A stretch of DNA of 64,000 nt from Candidatus Bathyarchaeota archaeon (GTDB lineage: Archaea; Thermoproteota; Bathyarchaeia; 40CM-2-53-6; RBG-13-38-9): assembly GCA_026015185.1 (NCBI GenBank), contig JAOZGX010000103.1, positions 2,127 through 66,126 on the forward strand, in the 5' to 3' direction. Positions 2,089 through 43,076 of this stretch are shown one piece after another. A program made the position numbers and the translations under genes. Within the stretch, counting starts at the first letter, position 1. Every line of letters begins with the position of its first letter. The notes below the pieces were generated by a model, which had not been told where the DNA came from, did no database searches, and saw nothing but the letters and a program-made list of their open reading frames with translations.

Positions 2089-2174
2089 AAAAAGGAAGAA
2101 TCAGGGGAATAGAACTTTTTAAACACACACGCCTTACATAGCGTAAAAAGAAAACGCGCGCACTATACTGCCAA

Positions 2175-2624
2175 TTATTGCATCTCATGCCTTGCAGATT
2201 TAATTATAGAATAAAAGTTAAGCACTTGTATAAATACCAAAAAACCAAGCGAACCAATTATAGCTACTGTTGTCATTGGGTCCATCCGCATTCTGAAGAC
2301 GATAAATGACAATGATAAGTACAATAACAGGATAGCAAGCAAATAAAGAAAATCTGCAAGAATGAACTCATAGTAATGTTTTATTCTTCTACAAATCTGA
2401 GAGCAGGTAACGAATAGAACTATACATAAGAATAGCCATGGATGTATTCGCAAGCCTATGGCCGGATCAAGAAAGATCTTAATCTGTACTGGATCAAAAT
2501 TTAGAAGAATACCAAAACAAACTAACGAAAAACCGGCGAGGAACAAGGAATCTCTTCTAAGGTCTTTTGCATCTTCTCTCTCTTCAGGATTAATTTCCAG
2601 TTTCCAGAATTGTTTCGTCGTCAA
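2175..2624 (-). CDS. Hypothetical integral membrane protein
   Basis: 149-aa ORF with 4 predicted TM helices. TAA stop. Confidence 0.45.
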   Translation of the reverse strand: MTTKQFWKLEINPEEREDAKDLRRDSLFLAGFSLVCFGILLNFDPVQIKIFLDPAIGLRIHPWLFLCIVLFVTCSQICRRIKHYYEFILADFLYLLAILLLYLSLSFIVFRMRMDPMTTVAIIGSLGFLVFIQVLNFYSIIKSARHEMQ

Positions 2625-2793
2625 CTCTAGGCACCATATATATGATGGTGGAGTTCATTTTAGTTAAAAGCATTTCCACAACTTGTGCGCTTGAATTCTA
2701 TCCAGAAAAAGTTATTCTGATAGATTATTAATAAATAGTTCTTGGAATTATAAGAAATACCAAATTGTTACACTCTTTTTTGGGCGTGTCCTA

Positions 2794-3825
2794 ATGTCAA
2801 CAGATCCTATGAAGATACTTATTGAGAAAGGGCAGATAGTTAAAGAACCTATGATACGATTTCTTAAAATTGGTACTAGTCCCGAATTCGAGGAAATAAT
2901 GCGTTGGCAGGTGGAATCTGGAGGAAAGCGAATCAGGCCTGCATTAGCTCTATCATTCGCAAAAGCCATCGGAAAACGGGACCCACAGGATCCAACGATT
3001 ATTGTTGCTGCTGCCGGTATTGAATTGATCCATAACATGTCTCTTATTTATGATGATATAATTGATCAAGCCACAACTCGGAGAGGAAAACCGACTACGC
3101 GAGCTGAATTTGGAGATGAAATGGCAATTTTAGCAGGAATTCAGCATCGGGAATGTATCTACCAAGCTGCAAGAGAAACAGGATCGGATTACTTCCCCGA
3201 AGTTTCTAGATTATTTTCTGAAGCAATTTCTGAGGTGGTTGAGGGAGAGCGCTTAGATGTTCTTTTCGAGCAAAAAGATCGTCCTTTCCCATATTTTACA
3301 AAGCACAAATACGATCTAGTGGTCGAAGAAGATTATTTGCAGATGATAAATGCAAAAACAGCTAGCTTAATTAGAGCTGCTTGTGCTGTTGGAGCTCTAG
3401 TCGGAGGAGGAACAGAGAAACAGATTGAGGCCGCTGGAGAGTTTGGTACTGCCATTGGTCATGCTTTTCAAATCATGGATGATTACCTTGATTTATTTGG
3501 TGATAAGAAACTTGGCAAAGAAATCGGTAAAGACATTATTGAACAAAAACTTGGCAATATTGTTATAATCAAAGCACTTCAGAACCTTTCGCATGAGAAG
3601 CAGGAGGTACTCCTTGAGACCATGAGAAGCGACCTTCGTGAGGAAGAACGAGTATCTAAAGTTATGGATTTAATAAATCAAGGGAATGGTAGGTCTCTTA
3701 CAAGAAAAAGTGCACAGGAGTTTATTGACAAAGCTAAAAAAGCTCTCGAAGAGAACTTTCCAGACTCTGATGAGAGGAGAGTACTCGCTAAAATAGCTGA
3801 CTATGTTGTTTCCAGATTGTATTAA
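2794..3825 (+). CDS. Polyprenyl diphosphate synthase (geranylgeranyl diphosphate synthase-like) with a C-terminal extension
   Basis: First aspartate-rich motif LIYDDIIDQATTRRGKPT and second motif FQIMDDYLDLFGD, matching the trans-isoprenyl diphosphate synthase family. Confidence 0.85.
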   Translation: MSTDPMKILIEKGQIVKEPMIRFLKIGTSPEFEEIMRWQVESGGKRIRPALALSFAKAIGKRDPQDPTIIVAAAGIELIHNMSLIYDDIIDQATTRRGKPTTRAEFGDEMAILAGIQHRECIYQAARETGSDYFPEVSRLFSEAISEVVEGERLDVLFEQKDRPFPYFTKHKYDLVVEEDYLQMINAKTASLIRAACAVGALVGGGTEKQIEAAGEFGTAIGHAFQIMDDYLDLFGDKKLGKEIGKDIIEQKLGNIVIIKALQNLSHEKQEVLLETMRSDLREEERVSKVMDLINQGNGRSLTRKSAQEFIDKAKKALEENFPDSDERRVLAKIADYVVSRLY

Positions 3826-3860
3826 TGGCCAGCAGTGTGACATTACCTGTCAACTAAACT

Positions 3861-3872
3861 AACGCGCGCTAT
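3861..3872. repeat. GC-rich palindrome variant AACGCGCGCTAT, 117-128 nt upstream of the 3989 start
   Basis: Member of the recurrent GCGCGC-core motif family. A second GC block (GCGCGAGCACTAGTGCCC) lies at 3921-3945. Confidence 0.4.
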
Positions 3873-3988
3873 AATCACCTAAAAATCATAATATAGCTAG
3901 TTCGATATTATTTATTATAATGCGCGAGCACTAGTGCCCACTTAAAATATATTTCTCGTATGTATGGAATAGAGAGGGGGTATAATAT

Positions 3989-5807: not shown

Positions 5808-5819
5808 TAGCGCGCGCTA
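5808..5819. repeat. Perfect palindrome TAGCGCGCGCTA followed by TTTAAAT
   Basis: Read directly. Identical 12-mer at 34054-34065 and 43065-43076; near-identical at 12977, 14450 and 24475. Confidence 0.6.
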
Positions 5820-9905: not shown

Positions 9906-9984
9906 CCTTAGTGAATCATATATGAATTTTAATAACAATAAATGCTCCTAACGAAATTTGAAAGTACGCACTGAAGGTTAAAAT

Positions 9985-10863
9985 ATGTTAAAAGCTAGCG
10001 GATTTTTTGATCTTACGAGGATAAGATATATTATTTTTCTCAATATCCCTTTGTTGCTATCTGCTTTTATTCTTGCTAAAAATTTTGATTTAAGACTGAT
10101 TCTTTTTATATGCATTTCATACTTCTTTGCTCATTTCTTTGTAAATGCTATAAACGACTTATATGATGTTGAAGAAGATAGAATTAATCGAATAAAATCT
10201 GTTGAAAATCCAATATGTTCTGGAAAAATCTCTAGAAAAGAGGGAAGATATATAACAATTACGTTACCATTTTTTGCTATATTATTTGCTATTCCAACAA
10301 ATCTAATATGGTTGGGTGCAATTATATTCACAATTTTTTTAGGCTGGTCTTATAGCGCACCACCTATTAGAGCTGAGATGAAGCCATGGGGTTTTCTAGT
10401 AAATGAATCTCTTGGAAGCAGTGTTGGATTTGTATGGACTTATTTAGCAGTAAAACCGACTAATTTGAGTTTGCCTTTTTGGGTATTTCCTATTGCCCTT
10501 TTCATATTCTTCAGCCACGCGATAATTATTAGTAAGGATCTTCCCGACATGAAATCAGACCGAGAATATGGCTTTAGGACTTTTGCCTTAGTTTATGGTG
10601 TTAGAACCACTCAAAGATTCATAATTCTGAGTATAATTCTATCATTAATAATCTACTTATACCTCTTAGTGATCGGTATTTTCTCAATTATCAGTTTACC
10701 TTTCGCAATTATCGGTGCGATCTTACCATTGAAGAATATTTCAAAACCTCTTAACCAATTGACAGATCGCCATCTTATTTATCAGAAGGTGATACCTGGA
10801 AGTTTATTCTATTCGATTAGCTTAATATTAGGTTTAGCAGGAAAACTTGTAATTCCATTTTAG
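9985..10863 (+). CDS. UbiA-family integral membrane prenyltransferase
   Basis: NAINDLYDVEEDRIN (NDxxDxxxD) and a second Asp-rich motif KDLPDMKSDREYG. About 8 TM helices. TAG stop. Confidence 0.8.
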   Translation: MLKASGFFDLTRIRYIIFLNIPLLLSAFILAKNFDLRLILFICISYFFAHFFVNAINDLYDVEEDRINRIKSVENPICSGKISRKEGRYITITLPFFAILFAIPTNLIWLGAIIFTIFLGWSYSAPPIRAEMKPWGFLVNESLGSSVGFVWTYLAVKPTNLSLPFWVFPIALFIFFSHAIIISKDLPDMKSDREYGFRTFALVYGVRTTQRFIILSIILSLIIYLYLLVIGIFSIISLPFAIIGAILPLKNISKPLNQLTDRHLIYQKVIPGSLFYSISLILGLAGKLVIPF

Positions 10864-12976: not shown

Positions 12977-12988
12977 GAGCGCGCGCTA
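12977..12988. repeat. GC palindrome variant GAGCGCGCGCTA
   Basis: 11 of 12 positions match the TAGCGCGCGCTA family. Sits between the micro-ORF stop and the HK start. Confidence 0.45.
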
Positions 12989-16962: not shown

Positions 16963-16976
16963 TTTCATTCTAACAA

Positions 16977-16994
16977 GCGCGCACCAAGGTACCC
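16977..16994. repeat. GCGCGCACCAAGGTACCC followed by an ACACACAC tract
   Basis: Reverse complement of GGGTACCTTGGTGCGCGC, matching 22320-22335 and the 934-949 core. Confidence 0.5.
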
Positions 16995-17124: not shown

Positions 17125-18123
17125 TTATAGTTCTATCTCAATCAACAATTTTTCCAAGAGCTCTTTATACCGATTTCTAATAGTTACCTCCGTAACGTTG
17201 GCCACTTCTGCTATCTCTCTCTGCGGCTTTCTTTCATTAGTGAGCACTGTTGCAAGATAAGTAGCTGCAGCTACTATGCCTAGAGGTCCCCGACCGCTGG
17301 TTAGCTTCATTTTCTTGGCAGCCCCAAGTATCTTTATAGCTATAATCTCAGCCGTACCTGAAATTGCTAATTTATTTGAAAGTCTGGAAGCATGACTGCT
17401 ACTTTTCAATAGTGGTACAAAAGAATCCAATTCTTTGATTATGAACCTATAACTTCTCGCTAAATCTTTCCTATTTAAGCTGGAAGCAGTGGCTATCTCC
17501 TCCAACGTTCTTGGGATCCCGCACTTCCTGCATGACAAGTAAATAGTAGCTGCTATTATACTATGGATGGACCTGCCGCGGCTTATTTTCTTCTTAACGG
17601 CTTCCCGGTATATCACGGAAGCCGTTTCCACTATACTCCTTGGGAGATTTAAGGCAGATGAAAGTTTACTAAGCTGCGATAGTGCTACAGCCAAATTTCT
17701 CTCAGTAGCATCGAGAACACGAATTTGTCTCTGCCGCTTTCTGAGAGCATAAAGCTCCAATCTCTGCTTAGAAGATATTTTTCCACCTATTGATCTTTTA
17801 TCTTTCCAATCTATGGTGGTCGACAAACCTTTATCATGAATGGTGTAAGTTATTGGCGCGCCCACGCGTGTTCTTTTAGCTCTTTGTTCGTCGTCAAAAG
17901 CTCTCCACTCTGGTTTAGTGTCTATAATCTTTTCGTCTATTACATAGCCACATTCGATGCAAACAATTTCCGCGATGTCATAATCTCTCATCAAATTCGA
18001 GTTGCCACATTCGGGGCATTTCCTTGGTTTACTCTTTACCGAGATGTGACTTTTAGCACTCTGATCGGTGTGCGCATATATTGTAAGATGTGGTGCTTTA
18101 TCGAACCTTCCCAGAGTGATCAC
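17125..18123 (-). CDS. tfb: Transcription initiation factor IIB (TFB)
   Basis: N-terminal Zn ribbon CPECGNS...CIECGYV, B-finger, two cyclin-fold repeats and the C-terminal HTH (NVTEVTIRNRYKEL). Confidence 0.9.
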   Translation of the reverse strand: MITLGRFDKAPHLTIYAHTDQSAKSHISVKSKPRKCPECGNSNLMRDYDIAEIVCIECGYVIDEKIIDTKPEWRAFDDEQRAKRTRVGAPITYTIHDKGLSTTIDWKDKRSIGGKISSKQRLELYALRKRQRQIRVLDATERNLAVALSQLSKLSSALNLPRSIVETASVIYREAVKKKISRGRSIHSIIAATIYLSCRKCGIPRTLEEIATASSLNRKDLARSYRFIIKELDSFVPLLKSSSHASRLSNKLAISGTAEIIAIKILGAAKKMKLTSGRGPLGIVAAATYLATVLTNERKPQREIAEVANVTEVTIRNRYKELLEKLLIEIEL

Positions 18124-20411: not shown

Positions 20412-20619
20412 AATTACGGAAGAACACTCAATTAACTTTCCTTTTTTTATTGGTGCGCGCTACACTATACTTCATGGCTTTAGAGATAAATCGGTCAATG
20501 TAATAATCCTTAAATAGCACATCATTTACATGTGGTGTAAACAAAATTAGTATTGCCAGAAATGGTCAAAAATGATTGACGAACTAGCACGCTATTTCAA
20601 ATATATCAATTACTAGGTT

Positions 20620-21990
20620 ATGGTATTTTCTGAATTAAAACTAGAGGAAGTTGAATCGAAAATGTTTTCGCATAAAATTAAGGTTTTACTTATCATTTTC
20701 ACTTTATGCTCTATGATTTCAATCGAAACAGGTTTTAGGACAAGGATATTTGTACAAGCTGAGAATAGTGTGGATAATGGCGACATTGAAAAAGTAAGAA
20801 TAGTGGATAGAGACGCTTTAAAGAAAAAGATCGATGAAAATGAAGATTTTGTTCTATTTGATGCGCGTACCTTAAAGAGTTACGAAAAAGAGCATATAAT
20901 AGGCGCGATATCTCTTCCTGTCAATGAGGCTGAAGTTAGGGTCGGGACCATCATCCCAGATAAGAATAAAGAGATAATTGTTTATTGCAGTAGTAAATAT
21001 TGTCCTGAAAGTTCTCTTTTAGTGGAAATACTTGTTGATTTGGGCTATACAAATGTAGCGCATTATGAGGGGGGAATCGATGATTGGAAAGAGGTAGGAT
21101 ATCCAACAGAGAAAAATGAGCGCGCGCGCTTACCTGTAGATGCTCAACAAGATTACACAATAATCTCTAATGAAATAGATTCGACTGTAGTTTTTGATGG
21201 AAAATGGACTACTGATGAAGAATGGAAAAATGGAACTCCAATATCTATGAGATTTAATCCTACTGCGCAAAATGTTGGCCTCATAAATAACGGTACGGTA
21301 TATTGTCAAATAAAGCGTGATGGTGAGGAATTATTCGTTCTGATCGATGCTGTTTCATCCCCAGATCCTTCTGGGAATTATACATCTGGATGGGATTTCT
21401 ATGGAGTGTGTATCGACTCTAATAATGAAAAGTCTGAATACCCGATGAAAGACGATTTAATTATTTCATTGACTTGGTTACTTCAAAATGGGAGCTACTG
21501 GGTAATGAATGGTTTTGGTAGAGTTACAGAGCCTGGATGGGATGCGGCAAATGCAAGAAAAGATCCTGTATACCTAAAACACTCAATTAGTTCATCACCA
21601 TTGTCTGAGAAACCCCATGTAGTATGCGAATTAGCCATTCCATTAGAAGATATGGGTGATGAAATTGGTTTTGGAGTAGTTGCTATTAATTTTTCAAACA
21701 AAACCATTAATACGTGGCCAGACAATTTTGTGGACGGTTCACCCAAAACTTGGGGAACTGTGATTATTAACAAAACAACCGAAATCATTGAGACACCAAT
21801 TTCTATTCAAACAACTAAACCAGCTCAAAATCAAACTGCACCTCCTCCAACTGAAGAAATCGATAAGAATGGTTCGATGAATATTTGGGAATCTCTCTCT
21901 TCACAAACAATTTTCATATTAATTATTGGTGTTATACTGGTTGTCGCGATTATTTTTATAGCTAGGAAATTACTAAAAAGAAAGAAATGA
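20620..21990 (+). CDS. Secreted, membrane-anchored rhodanese-domain protein with a C-terminal beta-rich domain and a Pro/Thr linker
   Basis: Rhodanese fold FVLFDARTLKSYEKEHIIGAISLP ... IIVYCSSKYC (active-site Cys loop) ... YEGGIDDWKEVGYP. The likely start is M15 (signal peptide MFSHKIKVLLIIFTLCS). C-terminal TM plus KRKK. Confidence 0.7.
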   Translation: MVFSELKLEEVESKMFSHKIKVLLIIFTLCSMISIETGFRTRIFVQAENSVDNGDIEKVRIVDRDALKKKIDENEDFVLFDARTLKSYEKEHIIGAISLPVNEAEVRVGTIIPDKNKEIIVYCSSKYCPESSLLVEILVDLGYTNVAHYEGGIDDWKEVGYPTEKNERARLPVDAQQDYTIISNEIDSTVVFDGKWTTDEEWKNGTPISMRFNPTAQNVGLINNGTVYCQIKRDGEELFVLIDAVSSPDPSGNYTSGWDFYGVCIDSNNEKSEYPMKDDLIISLTWLLQNGSYWVMNGFGRVTEPGWDAANARKDPVYLKHSISSSPLSEKPHVVCELAIPLEDMGDEIGFGVVAINFSNKTINTWPDNFVDGSPKTWGTVIINKTTEIIETPISIQTTKPAQNQTAPPPTEEIDKNGSMNIWESLSSQTIFILIIGVILVVAIIFIARKLLKRKK

Positions 21991-22033
21991 TGCTTTAAGT
22001 TCTCCCCTACTAGTACGCGTGCTTTTAATGTAA

Positions 22034-22273: not shown

Positions 22274-22306
22274 TTGAGTTGCTTTTTTAGCGTGTGCTTT
22301 TTATTT

Positions 22307-22346: not shown

Positions 22347-22381
22347 ATTCATACATCAATATGATCGCCGTGCTATGAGTT

Positions 22382-24412: not shown

Positions 24413-24474
24413 CTTTCTTTCCGAATTTAATATATCTTCCATATTTTTAAATGTTTTTTTGTAGCACATATTTG

Positions 24475-24486
24475 CGCGCGCGCTAC
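24475..24486. promoter_or_regulatory. GC palindrome variant GCGCGCGCGCTA, 63 nt upstream of the probable start of the surface-protein gene
   Basis: Read directly. A TTTAAAAATAT AT-box lies between the motif and the ATG on the coding strand. Confidence 0.35.
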
Positions 24487-24769
24487 TATAGCAAATAATT
24501 AACAATTTAATAAAGAGCCTATAAAAAATCGAGAAAAAAAATATAAATCCCTAAATTTTCTCGTCTATTCTATCTGACATTAATATTAAAGGGGATTCAA
24601 AAGTCTTTGTTAGGAGCATTCTTTTCTGACTTTTGTTTTACGATTGGATGCCAAAAAATTGAAACATGGAGATTAAGAAAGACCTTATCAAAAATGTTTA
24701 TTGGTATTTGGATATTGTTGTTATTTTTTTATTGTGCATATTATTTTTAGCGCATGCTCACATGAATCA

Positions 24770-24994: not shown

Positions 24995-25314
24995 AGTAAA
25001 AATCCAACCTATTGTATGGAATTGTAATTATGATATTATTTAAAATTTCAACAAGTGTATGTGGTTTCATAAGATCCTTTTTTTGCGGAGCCTCCTATGA
25101 TTGGCACCAATCAAATATCTGAATTATTTATATCGATGCGTACATATTTTCAATTTCTAATAAAATTAGAAAATAATTCCTATTAGATTTAATCAAAAAC
25201 ATGGTGGGAATGGTTAATATTAATCAGAATCATTATAGTAATTACTCGAAGTAGTGAAATTAAGTAAATTTTAAAACAGTTATCTATTGACATATTAGTA
25301 AGGTAATTTGTAAA

Positions 25315-28955: not shown

Positions 28956-29063
28956 AAAAATTCGATGTACACTCTAAAGCCAGCATGCCCTATATTCAAA
29001 TAATTCTAATAGTATTAAAAAAATAAGGGAATTAATGGAATAATCAAACATCATCTTAGCGGA

Positions 29064-29453
29064 TTATTTCTTATATAGAGCCCCTAGGACAGGGCCATAA
29101 ACAAGCCTCACGAAAAATCCAACGATACCCCACATAACCGCCAAAGGAATCATCTGTAGACTCAGAACAAAAAATGAAATCGGATATAATCCCACAAAGA
29201 CTAACCAAATTATGAGACTATAGATAAGACCCTTCATGACACCTTTACCAGGAACTACATTATAGACTTTGGCATATATTGCGCCAAATATAGTGCCCCA
29301 GATTAAATTGAGTGCTATCTGGACTATAATCCAATTTGTCATGCTAGGAGCGGCTCCCCAGAGTCCCATACTGAAGCCTACAAATCCAACAATAAGGCTT
29401 GTTATTCCACCGGCTATTCCTGCAATAGCGCCAGCGCTAGTACCACTTTTCAT
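29064..29453 (-). CDS. Small 4-TM membrane protein, member 2 of the paralog family
   Basis: AGAIAGIAGG ... VPGKGVMKGLIYSLIIW ... GALYKK. Confidence 0.6.
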   Translation of the reverse strand: MKSGTSAGAIAGIAGGITSLIVGFVGFSMGLWGAAPSMTNWIIVQIALNLIWGTIFGAIYAKVYNVVPGKGVMKGLIYSLIIWLVFVGLYPISFFVLSLQMIPLAVMWGIVGFFVRLVYGPVLGALYKK

Positions 29454-29637
29454 AAAAAATTCACCTCCTATTCTAATTACCAGGAATTTGAACGTGCGTA
29501 CTAATAATCAGATATTGTTTATTGTCGTAGTGTAAATAAGAATTTGCATTTACAAATGTGCTAGGGATCTCGTAAGCACGCATGTTGGGATGAATTAACT
29601 CTGACTTTAGGTGAAAAATGTGATGGTTTTAATAAAT

Positions 29638-32838: not shown

Positions 32839-33675
32839 CTATCGCTTGGAGCCTCTGACTTTAATGCTGATAACCGACTCAGCGACCTCTTTTATCTTCT
32901 CTGATGCTATATCTTGCTTTTCGATTATTGCTTTGGCAGTTGGATCGTTAGCCATTAACTCAACAGGGAAAAAGGTCTCATCTATAACATCAACTTGTTG
33001 AAAACCAGCTTTCTTTATCATTTGGAGATATTCATCTTTCTTAATCGCACCAGACAGACAACCGATGTATGCTTCAACGCTATTCTTAATCAGATCAGGA
33101 AGTTCTTTTAGCAATACTATGTCAGAGATCATCAGTCTACCTCCAGGTTTGAGCACTCTAAAAGCTTCGTTAAAGACTCTTTGCTTGTCGGGTGAGAGAT
33201 TAATTACACAATTTGAGACTATTATATCAACTGAATTATCAGCAGCAGGCAGATTCTCTATTTCTCCAAGCCTGAACTCAACATTCTTAAAATCGCTTTT
33301 TGTTGCGTTTTCTCTTGCTTTCTCGACCATCTCAGGCGTCATATCTATACCGATAACTTTTCCATTCTCACCAACTTTTTTCGCTGCAAGGAAACAGTCA
33401 AGGCCTGCACCCGAACCAAGATCAAGCACAGTCTCCCCTTCCTTTAAACCAGCAAGTGCTGTTGGATTTCCACAACCAAGACCCAAATTCGCACCTTCAG
33501 GAACAACTTTGAGTTCTTCATCAGTATAACCAATATTCTTGCTGATATTTTGAGCCATATCGGCGCCTCCACAACAAGAATTCATAGGAGCACAGCAAGA
33601 GCTATCCTGTTTAGCTATGTCAGCATAACCTTCTCTAACAACTTTCCTTACTTTCTTTTCTTCCACATTAATCAC
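32839..33675 (-). CDS. arsM: Arsenite S-adenosylmethionine methyltransferase
   Basis: N-terminal vicinal cysteines SSCCAPMNSCCGG, LGLGCGNPTALAGLKEGETVLDLGSGAGLD (SAM motif I), IVSNCVINLSPDK and AYIGCLSGA. This pattern of conserved Cys plus the UbiE-like fold is diagnostic of ArsM/AS3MT. TAG stop. Confidence 0.85.
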   Translation of the reverse strand: MINVEEKKVRKVVREGYADIAKQDSSCCAPMNSCCGGADMAQNISKNIGYTDEELKVVPEGANLGLGCGNPTALAGLKEGETVLDLGSGAGLDCFLAAKKVGENGKVIGIDMTPEMVEKARENATKSDFKNVEFRLGEIENLPAADNSVDIIVSNCVINLSPDKQRVFNEAFRVLKPGGRLMISDIVLLKELPDLIKNSVEAYIGCLSGAIKKDEYLQMIKKAGFQQVDVIDETFFPVELMANDPTAKAIIEKQDIASEKIKEVAESVISIKVRGSKR

Positions 33676-33696
33676 CTTCTAATTTAATCTTCATTA

Positions 33697-33990
33697 TTAT
33701 TTTTCAGCAATCTCTTCCATCATTGGACCTAGTATGCCCTTGACCATTCCTGTAAAATCTTCAACTTTAATCAAAGAAATACATGATACATTCCCATCTT
33801 TCTCCCAGCTTACAACCGCTAATTTATCTCCAGAATGGATTTTTGCCTTTTCTCTTATCTCCTTCGGAAGTACCATTTGACCTCTATCATCTACGCTTAT
33901 TACCGATTCAACCTTGCAACAACTTATTCCTTTTTCAGTTTCTGGACAACAGGATTCTTTTTCGTCGATTTTATCCAATTTAATCATCAT
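33697..33990 (-). CDS. AbrB/SpoVT swapped-hairpin DNA-binding domain protein with an N-terminal CCx8CC motif (candidate metalloid-responsive regulator)
   Basis: ESCCPETEKGISCC then DDRGQMVLPKEIREKAKIHSGDKLAVV (AbrB-domain signature). The CC...CC module resembles the one at the ArsM N-terminus. Confidence 0.6.
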   Translation of the reverse strand: MMIKLDKIDEKESCCPETEKGISCCKVESVISVDDRGQMVLPKEIREKAKIHSGDKLAVVSWEKDGNVSCISLIKVEDFTGMVKGILGPMMEEIAEK

Positions 33991-34053
33991 TGCAATGATG
34001 ATTCAGATTATTTAAATATTTCTGAAAATTCAGAATAAACTGAAAATTAATGC

Positions 34054-34065
34054 TAGCGCGCGCTA
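34054..34065. promoter_or_regulatory. Perfect palindrome TAGCGCGCGCTA, 64 nt upstream of the CC-AbrB gene start
   Basis: Read directly. A TATTTAAAT AT-box lies between the motif and the ATG on the coding strand. Confidence 0.4.
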
Positions 34066-34071
34066 TAATAA

Positions 34072-34617
34072 TTAACTCTCTTTACTAAACACCTTGAGGG
34101 CAGGGCAACCGATCTCTCTCTGTTTGCAGTATTTGCATGCTAAAGAACCTCTTACAAATGCATTACCGCCAAGTGAAAGAATGCTTAAGATTATCAATAG
34201 AGCTAGAATGGTCCAAGAGAAATCTGTAACTAGAAGGATAATACCGAAGGCCATGGGAATAATAAATACCAGAAAGTCCGGCACAAGATCAATCTTTTTT
34301 ATTTCTTTTTCAACAAATTTTTTTGGATTTCCTTTCTTGAAGAATAAAGAGCATAATTTTCCCCTGCCAAATGCGCAGATTTTGTCATAGTAATAACAAT
34401 CTACACAACTTCCTTTGAGTAATCTAATTTCAACCCAGATTATGTAAAGTAAAAATAAAACAACAAAGAGTATTCCAAATCTTGACACAATGTACATTCC
34501 TATTGCATAAATTGATACAGCAAGAAGATTGGATAGAAAAACAATCCATGAGGGCATATTTTCATAACTTATTGACTTGCTCAAGAAATCACCTGCCAAA
34601 CAAAATTTATCGTGCAC
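34072..34617 (-). CDS. Cys-motif integral membrane protein (4 TM; CVDCYYYDKICAFGRGKLC and CKYCKQREIGC)
   Basis: ORF with two CxxC-containing loops. No family recognised. Confidence 0.5.
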   Translation of the reverse strand: MHDKFCLAGDFLSKSISYENMPSWIVFLSNLLAVSIYAIGMYIVSRFGILFVVLFLLYIIWVEIRLLKGSCVDCYYYDKICAFGRGKLCSLFFKKGNPKKFVEKEIKKIDLVPDFLVFIIPMAFGIILLVTDFSWTILALLIILSILSLGGNAFVRGSLACKYCKQREIGCPALKVFSKES

Positions 34618-34627
34618 TACACTTTTA

Positions 34628-35326
34628 CTAGGCTACTGCCAAGTAGTCTTGGAGTTCTTTTTTTTCCTTAACCTCTTGAGGCGCTCCCTCAAACACTATG
34701 TGACCATCCCTCATTATATAGACTCTATCGGCCAATCCAAGCGCCAGGTTCACATTCTGTTCGACTAATAAGATAGACGTTTTCATTCTGATTTTATGGA
34801 AACTGGATACCAAGGATTCCGCAACCATTGGAGCAAGGCCCTGTGTTGGCTCATCTAAGATCAAGAGCTTTTTCTTACCTAAAAGGGCGCGACCTATAGC
34901 AAGCATCTGTTGCTCTCCCCCACTCAGATTCCCAGCTGCAGTGTTGAGATAGTCCCTCATGACTGGGAAGTATTCAAAGACATATTCGTAGGTTTTTGTT
35001 CCTGATCCAGCTGCAGCGAGCATAAGATTCTCTGCAACAGTCAACTTTGGGAAAATACCCCTATACTCAGGTACATAGCCCATTCCGATCTGTGTTCTGA
35101 CATAGACAGGGTCTTTTGAAATTTCACGTCCATCATAAGTTATTATGCCATCGTGCGGAGGAGTTAAGCCCATTATGCTTCTTAGAGTAGTTGTCTTCCC
35201 GACTCCATTACGACCGAGTAGAGTCACGATCTCCCCCTCCTTCACGTTGAGTGAGACATCGAAAAGGATATGGCTATCACCGTAAAATGTATTTATCTTC
35301 TCAACTTCAAGAATGGGTCTTTCCAA
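34628..35326 (-). CDS. livF: Branched-chain amino acid ABC transporter ATP-binding protein (LivF-like)
   Basis: Walker A GRNGVGKTT, signature LSGGEQQML, Walker B LLILDEP. TTG start with an AGGGAG SD 8 nt upstream. Overlaps the livG stop by 20 nt. TAG stop immediately followed by TAA. Confidence 0.85.
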   Translation of the reverse strand: MERPILEVEKINTFYGDSHILFDVSLNVKEGEIVTLLGRNGVGKTTTLRSIMGLTPPHDGIITYDGREISKDPVYVRTQIGMGYVPEYRGIFPKLTVAENLMLAAAGSGTKTYEYVFEYFPVMRDYLNTAAGNLSGGEQQMLAIGRALLGKKKLLILDEPTQGLAPMVAESLVSSFHKIRMKTSILLVEQNVNLALGLADRVYIMRDGHIVFEGAPQEVKEKKELQDYLAVA

Positions 35327-36086
35327 GATATATCTCCCTTACAAGTTTGTTTGCTCTGATCTCCTCAGGAGTTCCATCCGCGATGAGTTTCCCTCTGTGC
35401 ATGACTGCGATTCTTTGTGCCAGGTCCATTACTATATCCATCTTGTGTTCTACAACCACTATGGTCAATGTCTTTGCGAGTTCCCTTATTAAATTCACAG
35501 TGACTTTTGTCTCTGCTGGGCTTGAACCTGCTGTTGGCTCGTCTAAAAGCAGGAGTTCTGGGTCGGTGGCTATAGCCATGCCTATTTCTAGTCTCTTCTT
35601 ATCACCTTGAGGCAGTCCTCCAGCGATATCATCTCTACAATCATAAAGTTCGATTCTAGATAGAAGCTTTTCAGATCTACTAACGGTCTCTTCATCATTC
35701 CATTTATCCAAGTAGAACCATTTATGACCCTTCTTCAGTCTATACTGTGCAGCGATTGCCACATTTTCCATAACTGTGAGTTTAGGGAAGATTTGAATTA
35801 TCTGGTGGGCTTTTGCGATTCCCTTTTTCAATCTTTCATGCGGGGGAACATTGGTTATATCTTCATCTTTGAATAGGATTTTGCCAGAAGTTGGTGAGAC
35901 CGTTCCTACCAAGGCCTTAAACAGCGTGCTCTTCCCTGCTCCATTTGGTCCTATGATTGAGGCTAACTCACCATTGTTGAGAACAAAACTGAAAGAATTA
36001 ACCGCGATCAAGCCACCGAACTTACAAGTGAGATCCTCGATCCTAAGGAGAGCCATATCGATTCCTCTTAAACTGGGCACATGCAA
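35307..36086 (-). CDS. livG: Branched-chain amino acid ABC transporter ATP-binding protein (LivG-like)
   Basis: GPNGAGKST, LPQGDKKRLEIG signature, LLLLDEPTAG. Confidence 0.85.
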   Translation of the reverse strand: MHVPSLRGIDMALLRIEDLTCKFGGLIAVNSFSFVLNNGELASIIGPNGAGKSTLFKALVGTVSPTSGKILFKDEDITNVPPHERLKKGIAKAHQIIQIFPKLTVMENVAIAAQYRLKKGHKWFYLDKWNDEETVSRSEKLLSRIELYDCRDDIAGGLPQGDKKRLEIGMAIATDPELLLLDEPTAGSSPAETKVTVNLIRELAKTLTIVVVEHKMDIVMDLAQRIAVMHRGKLIADGTPEEIRANKLVREIYLGKTHS

Positions 36087-36179
36087 GGTAACCCTATAGA
36101 TGATTAGAGAATTTAACCTTAACTTAATAAATATTTTAAAATTAAGTTTAATCTAATATCTTGATCAAGGTAATTTTCT

Positions 36180-37454
36180 ATGTCAAAAACTAAAAAAGAG
36201 GAAACGATGAGTCGACGCCAATGGATGAAAATCGCAGCAGGTGGTGTAGTCGTTGCAGCCGCAGCTGGACTTGGAGGTTACTATCTAACTTCTAGACCAA
36301 AAGAAGAAGATACTATCCATGTCCTGGTCGCCGCTACGATGACCGGTCCTTATGGGTGGGCAGGTCAACACCAGATCGAAGGGACTGCTATGGCTATTGA
36401 GGAGGTCAATGAAGCGGGGGGCGTTCTTGGAAAAGAGCTTGTGTATACAGCTATCGATGATGAACTTAATCCTAGTGTAGCAACTCGCAGAGTTAACGAT
36501 GCCATCGAGAAATACGATACTAAACTAATAGTTGGTGGAACCTCAGGTGGCGTAAATTTACCAATTAATGAAATATCAAAATCTAAAAAAATCTTCTATT
36601 TCATAGGAAATCAAAGTTCACTAACTATACATAAAGCAAATGTCTTGAGTCCCTATACAGCTTCCCCCATGTGTATGGATGTTAATGCTGTAGCCGTGAA
36701 TATGGATTATATGATTAAGAACTATGGGAAGAAATGGTACATTCTTACTGTTGACTACGTTTGGGGCCATGGCATGCTTGAAAAAGAAGAGGCGTGGCTC
36801 GAAAAGTTCGGTGGAGAACTTGTAGGAAAAGATCTCTTCCCCTTAGGAACACCAGACTTCTCAACTATGCTACAAAAGGTGAAAGCTGCGAAACCAGATG
36901 TTATGGCATGTAACTCAGGTGGAACAGATCAACTCAACTGGATTAAACAGAGCAAGGAATTTGGTATGATGGAGGAGATGGTCATTCACGTGCCTTTAAC
37001 TTCAATGTATACCGCCGTTCCTGCAGGACCAGAGATATACGCTGGACTTATCTGTGGAACAGACTTTTGGTACGAGCTGCCTTCAAACTATCCTGGGTAT
37101 GAGGCTGCCAATAAGTTTAGACAGAAGTACGAAGAGAAATGGAAAGCACCTCCTGACCCCTATGGTTCAAATCCATACGTAGCTGTGTGGGAATGGGCAA
37201 ATGCGGTTAATAAGGCAGGGACACTAGATCCAGATGAAGTCCGTAAAGCCCTTGCAGGCAATGAATTCCAGTACTATAAGTCACAAGAATACTGGAGGGA
37301 ATGTGACCTCCAAGCCGTTCAAGACTGGTTCTTAGTAAAGGGAAAGATGCCAGAGGATGTAAAGAGCGATTACGATCTATTCGATGTAATCGGCTGGGGA
37401 GGTAGGGAAAATCCTGAAAACTATCTCCCCTCATGTGAGGAACTTGGATTCTAA
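36180..37454 (+). CDS. Periplasmic-type substrate-binding protein, LivJ/Leu-Ile-Val-binding family, Tat-like signal
   Basis: MSRRQWMKIAAGGVVVAAAAGLGG (twin-arginine-like signal) then the type-I PBP fold. The likely start is M10. Confidence 0.8.
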   Translation: MSKTKKEETMSRRQWMKIAAGGVVVAAAAGLGGYYLTSRPKEEDTIHVLVAATMTGPYGWAGQHQIEGTAMAIEEVNEAGGVLGKELVYTAIDDELNPSVATRRVNDAIEKYDTKLIVGGTSGGVNLPINEISKSKKIFYFIGNQSSLTIHKANVLSPYTASPMCMDVNAVAVNMDYMIKNYGKKWYILTVDYVWGHGMLEKEEAWLEKFGGELVGKDLFPLGTPDFSTMLQKVKAAKPDVMACNSGGTDQLNWIKQSKEFGMMEEMVIHVPLTSMYTAVPAGPEIYAGLICGTDFWYELPSNYPGYEAANKFRQKYEEKWKAPPDPYGSNPYVAVWEWANAVNKAGTLDPDEVRKALAGNEFQYYKSQEYWRECDLQAVQDWFLVKGKMPEDVKSDYDLFDVIGWGGRENPENYLPSCEELGF

Positions 37455-37487
37455 ACGCTCAATGCGTGATGCCCACATTAACTTCCA

Positions 37488-38510
37488 CTATTTTTTTATC
37501 AATTCTCTTTTGTCAAGTTCTTGTTTGATGATATCCAATACTCCGCGGCCTCTATAGGACCAAATCACAGCAACAACCACTATTCCCAGAAGTATCATCC
37601 AGTTAGAAGTCAATGATGCAAAGGAATCCTTCATGAGGATGTAAAGTGCAGCCCCAAGAAGCGGTCCAAAGAAAAGTTCCCTTCCACCTAGCAGAGTCAT
37701 TAGAAATACATCTCCAGATGCAAGCCAAGTTAGGTTCTCTAGACCAACATAATTAAGATGAAATGCATAGAGTGAGCCTGCAAGACCTGAGAAGAGTCCA
37801 GAAAACATGAAACTTGTAAGTTTATATCTCTGGACATCGTATCCGAGCAACATCATTCTCTGCTCATTCTCCCTTATCCCTTTGAGAACCTGTCCAAAGT
37901 GAGAGTTTGATATCTTTCTGGCAACAAAAATGGATATCAAAACTACCATCATAACGAAATAATACCAAGTAATAGGATTTCTCCATACAGCGCCATCAAT
38001 CCATAGAATTGATGGAGTTGGAATGTTTACAATTCCATCACCCCCTCCAGTCAAACCCCCGGGATTCTGGTAGAGAATAAAATAGAACAACTGCGCAAAC
38101 GCCAAAGTGATGAGTGCAAAGTAATGCCCGGGCCTTTTAAGCCCCAGAATTCCAACGAATAAAGCTGCCAACACAGCCAGAGCAGTTCCTGTGGCAAGCC
38201 CGCCCCAACCAAGCCAAAGTGGAATTATTGTTCTGACCCCATAGGGTCTCATAAGCCATAAAGCACAACCATAGCTTCCTAAGCCCCAGTATGCCGCGTG
38301 ACCAAAGGAACCAATTCCAGTCTGGCCAAGAAGAATATTAAATCCTATAGCAAACAAACCCCATATCAGAATATCGGTCGCTACAAACTTAGAAGATGTT
38401 AAATATGGAAAAACAATCAGTAGCAACAACAGAGTTAACATAGGGTATTTCATGAAATAACCAAGAAAGTCCCTTAGGTTCAACACAATCTCTCCTCTAC
38501 TTTTCTCCAA
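37488..38510 (-). CDS. livM: Branched-chain amino acid ABC transporter permease (LivM-like)
   Basis: About 9-TM permease with Gly-rich motifs. Overlaps the livH end. TAG stop. Confidence 0.8.
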   Translation of the reverse strand: MEKSRGEIVLNLRDFLGYFMKYPMLTLLLLLIVFPYLTSSKFVATDILIWGLFAIGFNILLGQTGIGSFGHAAYWGLGSYGCALWLMRPYGVRTIIPLWLGWGGLATGTALAVLAALFVGILGLKRPGHYFALITLAFAQLFYFILYQNPGGLTGGGDGIVNIPTPSILWIDGAVWRNPITWYYFVMMVVLISIFVARKISNSHFGQVLKGIRENEQRMMLLGYDVQRYKLTSFMFSGLFSGLAGSLYAFHLNYVGLENLTWLASGDVFLMTLLGGRELFFGPLLGAALYILMKDSFASLTSNWMILLGIVVVAVIWSYRGRGVLDIIKQELDKRELIKK

Positions 38511-39360
38511 AAAGACCTGCAGGCATGCCGACCAAAACTGCAGCCATGACTACGTAGATCATGACCTGACTTAACCTAGGCTCAAATAGAACTGGCAAGG
38601 TCATGGCTTGTCCAATAAGAATTCCAGCTACTAGAGCTCCACGGAGGCTTCCCAATCCCCCAACAACGACCACCACGAATCCAAGAATTAAAACCTCAAA
38701 ACCCATCTCAGGGTACACTCCAAGCAGTGGTGCAGTTGCCAAGCCAGCAATACCTGCGATAGCCGTACCCAATGCATAGGTCAGAGTAAATGTTCTGCCT
38801 ATGTTAAAACCCAAGACCTGGACCATTTCTCGATCTTGAATCCCAGCCCTTATCAATGTCCCAGATTTAGTCTTTTTCAGGAACAAAAAAATCCCGCCAG
38901 CAATTGCAAGCGAAAGAACGGTGATAAACAATCGGTATGCAGGATATTCAAATAAGAACAAATTCACTCTAAAATCTAATTCGGGCGGTGGAAAGAAGGG
39001 TTGGCCGTATTTTCCCCATATCATTCGGATAGACTCCAACATTATCAGAAGCAAACCAAAGTTAAGAAGAAGACCGGGTATTGGATCGGCGTATAGACGT
39101 CTAAGAAGCGTGGGCTCCACGATAAGGCCTAAAATTCCGCACAAGAATGCGACAAGGATTAAAGCTATCCAATAGTTACCTCCAGAAGCTATAACTTGGA
39201 ATGCTATGAATGCACCGAGCGCATAGTAGCCTCCATGAGCAAAATTGAGAATGCCCATTAATCCGAAAATCAGGCTTAGCCCCATAGAGATCAGTGCAAG
39301 CGCCAGACCCCAAACTAAACCGTTCATAACAGCAGATATTACTAAGGACAAGTCAACCAA
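38497..39360 (-). CDS. livH: Branched-chain amino acid ABC transporter permease (LivH-like)
   Basis: 8-TM permease, LNFAHGGYYALGAF motif. TAG stop. Confidence 0.8.
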   Translation of the reverse strand: MVDLSLVISAVMNGLVWGLALALISMGLSLIFGLMGILNFAHGGYYALGAFIAFQVIASGGNYWIALILVAFLCGILGLIVEPTLLRRLYADPIPGLLLNFGLLLIMLESIRMIWGKYGQPFFPPPELDFRVNLFLFEYPAYRLFITVLSLAIAGGIFLFLKKTKSGTLIRAGIQDREMVQVLGFNIGRTFTLTYALGTAIAGIAGLATAPLLGVYPEMGFEVLILGFVVVVVGGLGSLRGALVAGILIGQAMTLPVLFEPRLSQVMIYVVMAAVLVGMPAGLFGEK

Positions 39361-40833: not shown

Positions 40834-40920
40834 AATAAATCACGGCATTAGTGCGCATTCCTCGTATACACATGAATCTTTATTAAATTCAAAATTTTCT
40901 AGAGTTCTTGGTTAAATAGT

Positions 40921-41898
40921 ATGCCCGGATTACAGAGGGTAATTTTAGGCAATCTGCCCCTGCTCGGTATAAGTTATCAAGGCACAGAGAAAGATAGAGA
41001 GTACAAGAAAAAATTCTCAGACAAAAACGAATTAAAACTTATTTTGCGAGTAGGTTTAAAACATAAAGTAAGAAATTTTTCAGCTTCTTCTTTTGATTTT
41101 AATGAACTCGCTCCTTTGCATCTTGAGGTGGTGAAGGAGCTAGAAAAAGAAGAGAATATAAAAATCCCTTTAATCGCATGCCAGGGGATTCCTATTAAGT
41201 TTCAAGGTCAGAGGATAGATGATTATCGGAGATGGGCTACACATCTAAAATATGAAACGAATGAGTTTGGACAAGAAGTCAAAACTAGATATTTGGAGGA
41301 TCCTATACTAAATTTCCGAACAAATTGGAGAGAAAATCTTAGCTCATCTAAGCCTTATGATAAAAAGGAAATTGAAAACAATCTCAGCATCAATTGGAGA
41401 CAATGGGAAGAAAACCTCCAAAAGTTCTCAGATTACGAAGTAGAATTCATGGAGCCAGGATCCGAAACAGATTTCCTAGCTTTATGCAGAATTGATTTAT
41501 TAGAGGAACTTGTCGATAGGACGCGTGAGTTAGGATATAGAATTCTATTGGGATCACATCATCTAGGATCTACTGCGTATATGATTAAAAGAAAGATAGA
41601 AGGTTACGATGGATTCGTTACTCCGGTGAATAAACTTGGCCTAATGATGTTTCCACTTCAAAGAAAAGCTGAAGAAGCAATTAAAGAAGTTAGAAAAGAT
41701 GGAAAATTAATAATTGCTGTAAAGCCTTTTGCTGGTGGTAGAATAGAACCGAAGGAAGCTCTCGAATACGTTTTTAATAAAATGAAAGTAGACTCTTGCA
41801 TGATTGGTGTTGGCTCGGTGGAAGAAGCAGAATTTGATATTCAAATAGCAGAAAAAATTCTCAAAGCCATCGATCAGATTGGTACAAAGACGCTGTAA
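40921..41898 (+). CDS. Hypothetical protein (C-terminal region vaguely TIM-barrel oxidoreductase-like)
   Basis: 325-aa ORF. No confident domain. LGSHHLGSTAYMI and IIAVKPFAGGRI are weakly aldo-keto-reductase-like. Confidence 0.45.
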   Translation: MPGLQRVILGNLPLLGISYQGTEKDREYKKKFSDKNELKLILRVGLKHKVRNFSASSFDFNELAPLHLEVVKELEKEENIKIPLIACQGIPIKFQGQRIDDYRRWATHLKYETNEFGQEVKTRYLEDPILNFRTNWRENLSSSKPYDKKEIENNLSINWRQWEENLQKFSDYEVEFMEPGSETDFLALCRIDLLEELVDRTRELGYRILLGSHHLGSTAYMIKRKIEGYDGFVTPVNKLGLMMFPLQRKAEEAIKEVRKDGKLIIAVKPFAGGRIEPKEALEYVFNKMKVDSCMIGVGSVEEAEFDIQIAEKILKAIDQIGTKTL

Positions 41899-41959
41899 AG
41901 CTTTGAATTTAAAAAGTAAGTTATCCCAAATAAGCTAACAGTATCAATTTTACATCCTT

Positions 41960-43012
41960 TTAAATTGGTGAGCCGCATGCATCTTCAAACGTCCCTACGC
42001 CGCTCCCTAAATCGCCTAAACTGATTACACTGCTTTCAGTTTTCAGATCAAATTCTTCAGGTATAACGGCATACTCTATGTAAACTTGTGAGCCCCCACC
42101 CTTTATAGTATAAAGTTTCTTAGCATAACTCGCCAAGACGATTTTAACATCTTTGTCATCATCACGTCCTTCAACAATCCATTGCCTTCCACTTTCTATC
42201 TTCTGTATTTTCAGTTTTGGATTGTCAAAATTGATTGTCTTATTATTCTTAAAATCTTGGAAAATTATAGATCTGTGAAAATATCTATTTGAATTTTTTC
42301 CAGCTTTAAGGCAAAAAAACGATATTGAAAATCCCCTCTGGAAAACTACCCTCCCCCAATGAAAATGGCCGAACGTTGTAACCCCAACCACCTTCTGTAT
42401 GTGCGCTGTCCCCCTGAATCTTTTTCCGAGCACAGTACCTTTAGCGTCTAGAAAAATATCCACCCAACCCATACCGAATGGGGGCATAAAAACACCGTAG
42501 GCATCTTTATTCATAATACCATTTAACCCGCCGATATCTAGGTCAATGATGTCACTCACCCTTAATCTATAACTTGGAAAATTGCCATTAAGCATCATTT
42601 TCCGCCCTGAAATAGTCGTAAATATCGTTTTTCTATCAGAATCCACTTTTGTGACAGCGTTCGTATCTCCCAAGTCATGAAGCCTCTCTCCATCATATAT
42701 CCAGCCAGTGGTAACTGCTTGAAACGTGTTTTCTTCTAACCACATGAGCGTCATCTCTTTATCATTGAACATTACATTTCCTCCATGTTTCCTAAATACC
42801 AATAACATAAATTGAATCGGTTTTTCTCCATCTCGACCAGAGAAATGAAGCCACCAATACTCCTTTCCTAGAGGGGGCAACAGTTCAGCATTATACATCA
42901 CTCTATCTAACACCGACGCATCTATGTCTGAGCCGTTTATGGATGAAAGTTTTCTAATGAGAGAATAAGTTCCTCCAATTTTCCACATCGTTTTGTATAA
43001 TTGACGGATCAT
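41960..43012 (-). CDS. Hypothetical protein, no recognised domain
   Basis: 350-aa soluble ORF. GC palindrome 53 nt upstream. Confidence 0.45.
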   Translation of the reverse strand: MIRQLYKTMWKIGGTYSLIRKLSSINGSDIDASVLDRVMYNAELLPPLGKEYWWLHFSGRDGEKPIQFMLLVFRKHGGNVMFNDKEMTLMWLEENTFQAVTTGWIYDGERLHDLGDTNAVTKVDSDRKTIFTTISGRKMMLNGNFPSYRLRVSDIIDLDIGGLNGIMNKDAYGVFMPPFGMGWVDIFLDAKGTVLGKRFRGTAHIQKVVGVTTFGHFHWGRVVFQRGFSISFFCLKAGKNSNRYFHRSIIFQDFKNNKTINFDNPKLKIQKIESGRQWIVEGRDDDKDVKIVLASYAKKLYTIKGGGSQVYIEYAVIPEEFDLKTESSVISLGDLGSGVGTFEDACGSPI

Positions 43013-43064
43013 CAGATTATCACATCGTTGTTTATTTCATCTTTTCAGGTATGGGTAACCAAGC

Positions 43065-43076
43065 TAGCGCGCGCTA
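43065..43076. promoter_or_regulatory. Perfect palindrome TAGCGCGCGCTA, 53 nt upstream of 41960..43012 and adjacent to CTTGGTTACCC
   Basis: Read directly. Confidence 0.4.

Follow-up and report, generated by a model that had tools for sequence, protein, structure and literature searches.

A candidate ultrashort joint element, the palindrome TA(GC)nTA, in rearranged DNA of a Candidatus Bathyarchaeota archaeon

To our knowledge, fungal mitochondria are the only setting from which ultrashort junction elements have been reported. The element MUSE1 of Podospora anserina mitochondria is, in the accounts that cite it, 11 bp long, present in more than 100 copies, and 'frequently observed at recombination junctions' (PMC1864894; also PMC7218506); its spread by a reverse transcriptase that adds sequence at a free 3'-OH has been proposed and is unproven, as the same kind of account puts it (PMC2670323). 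The GC clusters of yeast mitochondria, such as GC42, are sporadic between strains, fast-evolving, and recombinogenic (PMC4478555). Here we describe a GC-rich palindrome that recurs in the chromosomal DNA of a Candidatus Bathyarchaeota archaeon (assembly GCA_026015185.1, contig JAOZGX010000103.1, positions 2,127 to 66,126). This stretch of 64,000 nucleotides, hereafter the window, has a GC content of 36% and a CpG observed/expected ratio of 0.71, and all positions below are counted within it unless a contig is named. The motif, TA(GC)nTA with n = 3-7, is probably a lineage-restricted ultrashort palindromic joint element that lies at the edges of deleted, inserted, relocated, and fused gene-sized segments.

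The over-representation of the motif is real and highly non-random. The perfect 12-mer TAGCGCGCGCTA occurs exactly at 5808, 34054, and 43065, where a preliminary description of this DNA had placed it, and dinucleotide-preserving shuffles gave no match to it. Similarly, GCGCGCGC has nine overlapping matches, that is, seven places, against 0.05 expected, the 12-mer with up to two mismatches has 11 matches against 0.49, and CGCGCG has 12 against 1.0, which bears out the earlier claim of a copy number far beyond chance. The variants that had been listed were all recovered to within 1 nt, and to these can be added copies at 1632, 1422, 16975, and 58405 as well as decayed copies that are visible only through the relatives (15794, 18675, 20585, 22014, 24748, 25084, and 25138), which brings the window as a whole to about 20 copies, whether full, variant, or decayed (Table 1). 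What had been called a palindromic dodecamer is a genuine palindrome but not a fixed 12-mer, the structure common to the copies being T-A-(GC)n-T-A; the TA flanks are common, not universal, and at some copies the flank supplies the outer TA or it is missing. Only 4 of 11 copies (3860, 5808, 34054, and 43065) are followed by TAT(A/T)(A/T), which had been thought to hold for most. A seeming strand asymmetry, with GCGCTA kept on the + strand, fell away once all copies were tabulated. When the flanks were compared, no similarity was found outside the core of 12-14 nt, which rules out a longer element around it such as a miniature inverted-repeat transposable element (MITE) or a repetitive extragenic palindrome (REP).

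The window was compared with six related sets of metagenomic contigs, namely L008 (95% DNA identity to the window), L013 (92-96%), L019 (87-96%), L060/L061 (about 92%), L017/L018 (about 90%), and L016 (82-89%); the part from 50 to 64 kb is without relatives in this set. All strong copies of the window fall within 1-43 kb, the part that is seen rearranged between strains, and L008 and L013 are collinear with the window over 39.9-50.2 kb, where 43065 is the only copy.

Several of the joints can be read base by base. In L019, GAAA-TAGCGTGCGCTA-AATAAC stands in place of 635 bp of the window (28958-29592), which include the gene 29064-29453. As the outgroup L016 is in the filled state, the state of L019 is a derived deletion in which the motif is the sole new sequence, and the filled state carries no motif at either edge in the window or in L016. 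Likewise, in L016 a perfect TAGCGCGCGCTA joins window position 32937 to window position 34258 with the loss of the CC-AbrB gene, and neither of these endpoints has GCGC in the window. By tblastn, only residues 247-274 of arsM are left on one side, where they end at this motif; on the other side it meets the remains of the membrane protein 34072-34617, a stump of residues 4-120 with a frameshift. Elsewhere in L016 only residues 100-132 of a cupin gene are left, cut exactly at GCGCGCGCTA, and after about 320 nt of unrelated DNA a second, perfect copy follows. The L016 block that begins at window position 2160 has AGAGCGCTG there and CGCGCGCT at its other end.

A joint also lies within a coding sequence. 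The copy inside the rhodanese gene marks an in-frame fusion, in which a P0160-like rhodanese module ends ...GYPTEKNE and is followed by Arg-Ala-Arg (CGC GCG CGC); 3' of this linker stands the mature part (LPVxAQQDYTII...) of a P0153-like family, which is otherwise stand-alone. The 4.3-kb segment with this gene and the surface-protein gene (20461-24757) is missing from L019, its left joint having the motif in both the window and L019 and its right joint the half-site TAGCGCATGC. The copy at 20451-20462 is where the L019 block stops, at 20460, and where that of L060 begins, at 20462; in L060/L061 the rhodanese gene is found at a different locus, and homology to the window begins exactly at the edge of this copy, where L060 reads GCACGCA. 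Similarly, the TFB segment of the window is bracketed by the copies at 16975 and 18176, and L017/L018 have in its place two small genes bracketed by three copies. Homology to L017/L018 stops at window position 16962, where L017 has a motif copy of its own, and resumes at 18236, which is immediately abutted by TAGCGCGCGC in L017/L018. Near 18800, L017 has GCACGCGCGC in place of 13 nt of the window.

The same association is found in a second lineage of 44-48% GC. The copy at 9766 of L011 is the exact start of 93.6% homology to L015, which lacks the motif, and L020 has an independent left joint 6 nt further in with TAGCGCGCGCGCTA. Block A starts with TAGCGCGCGC in L011, L020, and L021 with different outer flanks, and blocks A and B stand in swapped order in L011 compared with L020/L021, each bounded by copies. 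At the level of sequence, these alignments demonstrate both that new copies arise at joints and that existing copies coincide with later breakpoints.

The copies are dense in both lineages, at about 0.2-0.7 per kb in that of the window and about 0.4 per kb in L011. No copies were found in L006, L007, L014, and L015, and in L001 there are plain runs of CGCGCG only, with no TA beside them. The copy at 3860 was not found downstream of the orthologous polyprenyl synthase gene in L001, L006, and L007; these loci (65-80% amino-acid identity, GC 42-48%) are motif-free and hence uninformative for footprinting.

An assembly artefact was considered and ruled out. The same joints are present in independent assemblies (window, L009, and L010; L017 and L018; L020 and L021; L060 and L061), and this recurrence, together with a motif of 12-14 nt that is shorter than any assembler k-mer, makes such an origin unlikely. 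The strain of the window is also present in the Logan runs SRR32197407 and SRR32197408, and the contigs L009 and L010 are identical to it across the site at 34054.

The tendency of copies to lie at breakpoints was also tested by randomisation, with each copy placed randomly in its own intergenic region; joints within genes or adjacent to them, which are the strongest cases, were left out. Seven of 21 informative intergenic copies were within 5 nt of the end of a homology block, whereas 2.96 were expected (P = 0.013).

Table 1. Copies of the TA(GC)nTA motif in the window, with their sequence and setting
Position	Strand	Sequence	Setting and state in relatives
1422..1433		variant TAGCGTGCGCTT	7 nt past stop of gene 1007-1414 (small membrane-protein family); L016 homology stops just before
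1632..1643		variant TAGCGCGCGGTA	106 nt upstream of DUF1801 gene
2153..2164		variant AACGCGCGCACT	Convergent gap; edge of block with gene 2175-2624
3860..3871		variant TAACGCGCGCTA	34 nt past polyprenyl synthase stop
5808..5819		perfect 12-mer	32 nt past cation-efflux gene stop
12977..12988		GAGCGCGCGCTA	Between two blocks placed at different spots in L016
14450..14461		TAGCGCGCGCAT	Divergent gap; adjoins cupin segment, which is exchanged for a DUF2807 gene in L017
15794..15805		decayed TAGCGCGGGTTT	25 nt past stop; L017 ortholog is TAGCGTGCGCTT
16975..16984		short AAGCGCGCAC	12 nt past stop, convergent gap; left edge of TFB segment
18176..18189		14-mer variant GAGCGCGTGCGCTA	Right side of TFB segment
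18675..18687		decayed AACGCGTGTGCTA	Immediately past stop of 18304-18675; L017 has AACGCGCGCGCTA
20451..20462		TGGTGCGCGCTA	Left joint of 4.3-kb rhodanese and surface-protein segment
20585..20594		decayed 10-mer TAGCACGCTA	About 26 nt upstream of rhodanese start; L060 has TAGCGCGCTA
21118..21131	+	GAGCGCGCGCGCTT	Within coding sequence; encodes E-RAR-L at joint of two fused gene modules
22014..22025		probable decayed copy TACGCGTGCTTT	23 nt past rhodanese stop; L060 has (GC)5TA 18 nt past its stop
24472..24485		TTGCGCGCGCGCTA	59 nt upstream of surface-protein start; within segment missing from L019
24748..24757		half-site TAGCGCATGC	Abuts right joint of 4.3-kb segment
25084..25095		degenerate TGCGGAGCCTCC	L019 ortholog is (GC)7
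25138..25145		decayed GCGTACAT	L019 ortholog is GCGCGCTT
34054..34065		perfect 12-mer	6 nt past one stop, 63 nt upstream of CC-AbrB; within 1.3 kb replaced in L016 by a single motif
43065..43076		perfect 12-mer	Abuts outer edge of conserved 53-nt promoter/leader block of gene 41960-43012
58405..58414		short TTGCGCGCTT	Convergent gap, after paralogue of small membrane-protein family

Once in place, the copies change rapidly. Five of the six orthologous intergenic copies that were compared are altered or replaced, and the sixth has a perfect core that differs by one GC unit. Examples include L017 CGCGCGCGCTA against window CGCGTGTGCTA, L019 GCGCGCTT against window GCGTACAT, L060 TAGCGCGCTA against window TAGCACGCTA, L060 GCGCACACGC against (GC)5 in the window, and (GC)7 in L019 against window TGCGGAGCCTCC. 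Changes fall on 9 of 45 motif columns and 18 of 382 flank columns (Fisher p = 8e-4), so that the copies diverge about 5-fold faster than their flanks, and nearly all of these changes are CpG transitions or the gain or loss of a GC unit. Judged from these orthologs, the copies are shown to be free of sequence constraint. The decay at 18675, 20585, 21118, and 25138 consists almost wholly of C>T or G>A at CpG, a dinucleotide which is depleted genome-wide (0.71), and it is compatible with a putative cytosine methylation at GCGC or CGCG.

The position of the copies relative to genes is varied. Ten of 18 intergenic copies follow a stop codon by 40 nt or less, convergent gaps hold three (2153, 16975, and 58405) and divergent gaps also three, and copies are also present inside one coding sequence and, in L016, against pseudogene stumps. 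A spacing of 50-65 nt upstream of start codons, which had been described as typical, does hold at four sites (52, 52, 59, and 63 nt) but these are only 4 of the 18 intergenic ones. The copy at 43065 is instructive in this respect. L011, L014, and L015 (71-78% protein identity) all keep a 53-nt block upstream of the gene 41960-43012, and none of the three has the motif there, so that the conservation at orthologous promoters that an operator would lead one to look for was not found here; L011 lacks the motif at this promoter, yet has about 8-12 copies elsewhere in 21 kb. In L013, a strain of ~96% identity, the site at 43065 is TAGCGCGCGCGCTA, a 14-mer with one GC unit more than the 12-mer of the window. 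The block itself (43013-43064) is kept in six genomes (the window, L011 at 9948-10000, L014, L015, L020, and L013), beyond which the flanks are unrelated; it contains a mini-open reading frame, ATGAAATAA, and the gene encodes 350 amino acids. No covarying RNA structure was detected in the block, and hence it is probably a conserved promoter and leader.

We infer that a process of DNA breakage and rejoining accounts for the tract, which would be its scar or its terminal sequence. As the most economical mechanism, both ends of a break would carry the same short self-complementary ...TA(GC)n end, and the two could anneal and be sealed, as (GC)n pairs with itself in any register. The annealed ends would then yield a palindrome with outer T/A, a variable number of GC units, and no longer shared sequence. 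Such ends may be left by a mobile segment or by transposon-like cleavage, comparable to Tc1/mariner/IS630 footprints, or may be added by a polymerase or a reverse transcriptase, comparable to the proposal for Podospora MUSE1 (PMC2670323). The spacing of the copies, 52-63 nt from starts and 0-40 nt from stops, would on this mechanism reflect selection, with joints surviving just outside a promoter or just past a stop. The site at 43065 illustrates such selection on the position of a joint, as the motif there abuts a block that is conserved in relatives without the motif.

Several observations weigh against this account of the motif. All sequences are metagenome assemblies, a caveat beside which stands the agreement of independent assemblies at the joints. 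The randomisation, conservative as it is, was only moderately significant, and BLAST blocks may stop at a hypervariable tract, for which reason the main weight is put on the joints inspected base by base. Some copies lie within collinear blocks (43065 compared with L013; 15794 and 18675 compared with L017), and hence not all copies are recent joints. The four copies at 52-63 nt from a start exceed a rough expectation of about 0.5, which keeps a promoter-proximal role in play. Block A carries an identical TA(GC)4 in L011, L020, and L021 despite different outer flanks; this constancy in two contexts suggests copies that are cut at the outer edge or that travel with a mobile block, better than it does a pure de novo filler. 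Finally, about 190 kb from at least five strains yielded neither an enzyme nor a parent transposon nor any longer element whose ends match, and the cassette genes showed no transposase or integrase domains, Pfam giving only small membrane or unknown proteins.

The pattern of block A also keeps a recombinase and cassette model as a serious rival, although we consider it unlikely. Here the motif would be the crossover site of a site-specific recombinase that moves gene cassettes in an integron-like manner on a palindromic site of 12 bp, and such a site, being palindromic, would allow cassettes in either orientation. In the first 25 kb of the window nearly each gene or gene pair is indeed bracketed by copies, empty sites have one copy where filled sites have copies at both ends (L019 compared with window 20451 and 24748; L060 at 4592 and 6159), the permuted blocks A and B have copies at every boundary in L011 and L020, and recombination of (GC)n in different registers would give a variable n. 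A recombinase acting on existing sites is harder to reconcile with the directional joints, which arose at positions that were ancestrally free of the motif (inside arsM, the membrane protein, and the cupin gene, and at the fusion joint), with the 635-bp filled state, whose two edges are free of copies in both the window and L016, and with the two independent joints 6 nt apart in L011 and L020. The half-sites of 6 bp are, moreover, far below the length of any known recombinase site, and the window and the loci examined showed no recombinase gene.

Somewhat less likely still, the motif could act in its own right as a boundary element (terminator, insulator, Z-DNA tract, or the site of a chromatin protein), part of the regulatory unit of each gene and carried along with moving genes. 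Alternating (GC)n tracts are classic formers of Z-DNA under negative supercoiling, and the (GC)4-7 of the motif, with 8-14 bp of alternating GC, would be predicted from sequence to be prone to it. The placement of 10 of 18 intergenic copies just past a stop, as is seen likewise in L011, and the same copy on block A in two genomic contexts would fit such a role, but the motif decays at a higher rate than the sequence beside it, relatives lack it at the ends of orthologous genes, and it is also found at pseudogene stumps and in coding sequence. An RNA hairpin, terminator, or 3'-stabiliser was ruled out, as the folding of five copies was weak (-2.5 to -5 kcal/mol) and no better than that of shuffles, and no consistent T-tract follows the copies. 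Neither an Rfam family nor a tRNA was found in the window.

Replication slippage that lengthens AGCGCT-like seeds into a (GC)n microsatellite, unconnected to rearrangement, would account for the number of GC units that differs between close strains ((GC)4 in the window and (GC)5 in L013; (GC)7 in L019; AGAGCGCTG in L016 and ACGCGCGCAC in the window). We regard it as very doubtful, since slippage cannot put a whole tract of 10-12 nt at a deletion or fusion joint whose partners had no GCGC, and it leaves the T/A flanks, the association with breakpoints, and the restriction to lineages unexplained.

The operator of a dimeric transcription factor, which the preliminary description had offered with a regulon of tfb, the surface protein, CC-AbrB/arsM, and an unknown gene, is the least credible of these readings, for although the motif is palindromic, strongly over-represented between genes, and present in four copies 52-63 nt upstream of starts, its half-site spacing varies in 2-nt steps (n = 3-7), its density (one copy per 2-5 kb) exceeds what a specific regulon would have, its copies occur in convergent gaps, in coding sequence, and at pseudogenes, diverge at an accelerated rate, and are absent from the orthologous and otherwise conserved promoter in L011, L014, and L015, and tfb with its motif is a strain-variable segment, all of which amounts to a contradiction by the comparative data. 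The other option it had named, that of a short dispersed palindromic element, finds support and can be made more precise, as the copies lie at the joints of rearranged DNA.

Several genes of the window stand beside such joints and vary in their own right. The TFB (TFIIB-like) gene at 17125-18123 is exchanged for two small unknown genes in L017 and L018, and this TFB paralogue, lying as it does in a strain-variable segment, is thus accessory. The rhodanese fusion gene (20620-21990) is a mosaic; the stand-alone secreted or membrane family that it draws on has a paralogue, NWF08_02760, in the same metagenome-assembled genome, and the C-terminal transmembrane tail of the fusion is P0153-like in the window and P0160-like in L060, so that a second swap took place near 21858. 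L016 lacks the arsM/CC-AbrB pair and the adjacent ABC-transporter cluster (32839-39360) and has a YtfJ-family gene after GlutR; in L019 the YtfJ-family gene also stands directly after GlutR, its segment being inserted at window position 32856, and the contig ends about 300 nt further on. Small membrane proteins of about 125-135 amino acids without a Pfam match form a family with four paralogues in the window (1007-1414, 29064-29453, 57267-57644, and 57924-58331), three of which are edged by a motif or a strain-variable joint (1422, the 635-bp polymorphism, and 58405), and L016 and L017 carry further members.

As to the lineage, the L016 record (NCBI GCA_975903375.1, CDLKMD010000004.1, 38.8 kb) is filed as [Eubacterium] cellulosolvens, yet is clearly of this archaeal lineage and probably a contaminant in a bacterial assembly. 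By exact protein matches the window belongs to a 69-kb contig with NWF08_08xxx locus tags, which is deposited as Candidatus Bathyarchaeota archaeon. The named relatives of the RPA-like protein of the window are mostly Bathyarchaeia, and the polyprenyl synthase has a single GTDB match (77% amino-acid identity) that is labelled Heimdallarchaeota, so that the labels conflict. A link to viruses was rejected: the 14-mer is found once each in 38 IMG/VR contigs, which are mostly GC-rich, and the low-GC cases of L024 and L059 are unrelated. In these two (L024 at 1621-1668 and 2953-3000; L059 at 10268; GC 35-37%), TA-flanked (GC)4-5 lies in a 48-nt repeat that is the start of paralogous viral genes (reverse strand MADTTISDLARA...).

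Returning to the joint element, it may tentatively be proposed that these archaea possess an unrecognised breakage-and-rejoining system, working with self-complementary TA(GC)n tails, which would be added or left at broken ends so that any two of them can anneal, or with a recombinase or transposase that acts on a 12-bp palindrome. Such a system would shuffle, delete, and fuse gene-sized segments across the chromosome, with TA(GC)nTA as the trace of its action. If so, archaeal chromosomes would have their own equivalent of integron-like cassette shuffling or of the ultrashort invasive elements of mitochondria, and a chromosomal archaeal case would broaden the phenomenon of ultrashort junction elements. 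The motif would then be a 12-bp footprint from which genome rearrangement could be read in an uncultivated archaeal lineage, each copy flagging a past deletion, insertion, translocation, or fusion, and would offer direct access to the plasticity of the genome and to how fused genes arise; the enzyme could be sought by phylogenetic profiling of motif density against gene presence. It is also a warning for motif-based prediction of regulons, in that over-representation together with promoter-proximal spacing can stem from selection on tolerated joints. Literature searches returned nothing on the motif, and the exact 12-mer was in none of the papers searched.

Among the known systems, the motif fails the defining features of REP/RAYT elements (RAYT, REP-associated tyrosine transposase), integron attC sites, intrinsic terminators, and transcription-factor operators. 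It shares with the operators of dimeric factors a short perfect intergenic palindrome that is sometimes upstream of genes, but differs in its variable spacing, its excessive density, its contexts outside promoters, and its want of orthologous conservation. With integron cassettes it shares gene-sized units that are bounded by imperfect palindromes and vary in order and content between strains. The attC sites are, however, 57-141 nt long with defined core sites (R and L) and need IntI, and their cassettes are mostly co-oriented next to attI, whereas the motif has 12-14 nt and the genes around it face both ways; neither the window nor the loci showed an integrase. REPs and bacterial interspersed mosaic elements (BIMEs) are 20-40 nt long, with a stable stem and a conserved GTAG head, linked to RAYT, conserved within a species, and present in hundreds of intergenic copies. 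They resemble the motif as short GC-rich palindromes that often lie just past stops and in convergent gaps and are hot spots of insertion and rearrangement; the motif falls short of them in length and folding, and no IS200/IS605-like (RAYT) gene is among the annotated genes of the window and loci.

The excision footprints of Tc1/mariner/IS630 have an outer TA on both sides and a short palindrome made from the two element ends, with a length that varies by a few nucleotides. The motif is like them in its short palindrome, its variable length, and an outer TA that is common but not universal, and such footprints are found only where an element has been; a parent element with GCGC... termini was not seen in the same 190 kb or so, and the directional events at the motif are deletions of 0.6-1.3 kb or gene fusions, unlike simple empty sites.

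The closest known parallels are the two fungal mitochondrial ones, MUSE1 and the GC clusters. GC clusters are likewise GC-rich palindromes in very AT-rich intergenic DNA, with rapid substitution, merger, and shuffling, are preferred sites of recombination, and occasionally have in-frame coding copies, as in var1 (PMC4478555). They differ in being 30-50 nt long with stable hairpins and conserved stems, whereas the motif has 10-14 nt, no stable hairpin, and a core that mutates fastest. They also insert cleanly with an AG target duplication, and no clean insertion of the motif with a target duplication was found among the orthologous comparisons, in which new copies come with deletions, replacements, or joins. 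MUSE1, so far as citing descriptions go, resembles the motif in being ultrashort (about 11-14 bp) with many dispersed copies in AT-rich non-coding DNA, in being optional between close relatives, and in lying repeatedly and exactly at recombination junctions. The motif displays the same size and dispersal, the optional presence (window against L013, L016, L017, L019, and L060), and the location at junctions. On those descriptions MUSE1 is unlike the motif in being fungal and mitochondrial, and the variable (GC)n core is a feature of the motif. An intron-encoded reverse transcriptase or endonuclease, the type of driver proposed for MUSE1, was not seen in the window or the fetched loci. From both fungal parallels the motif is set apart by being chromosomal and archaeal, by a (GC)n core of 10-14 nt with no stable hairpin, and by arriving with deletions and joins rather than by clean insertion.

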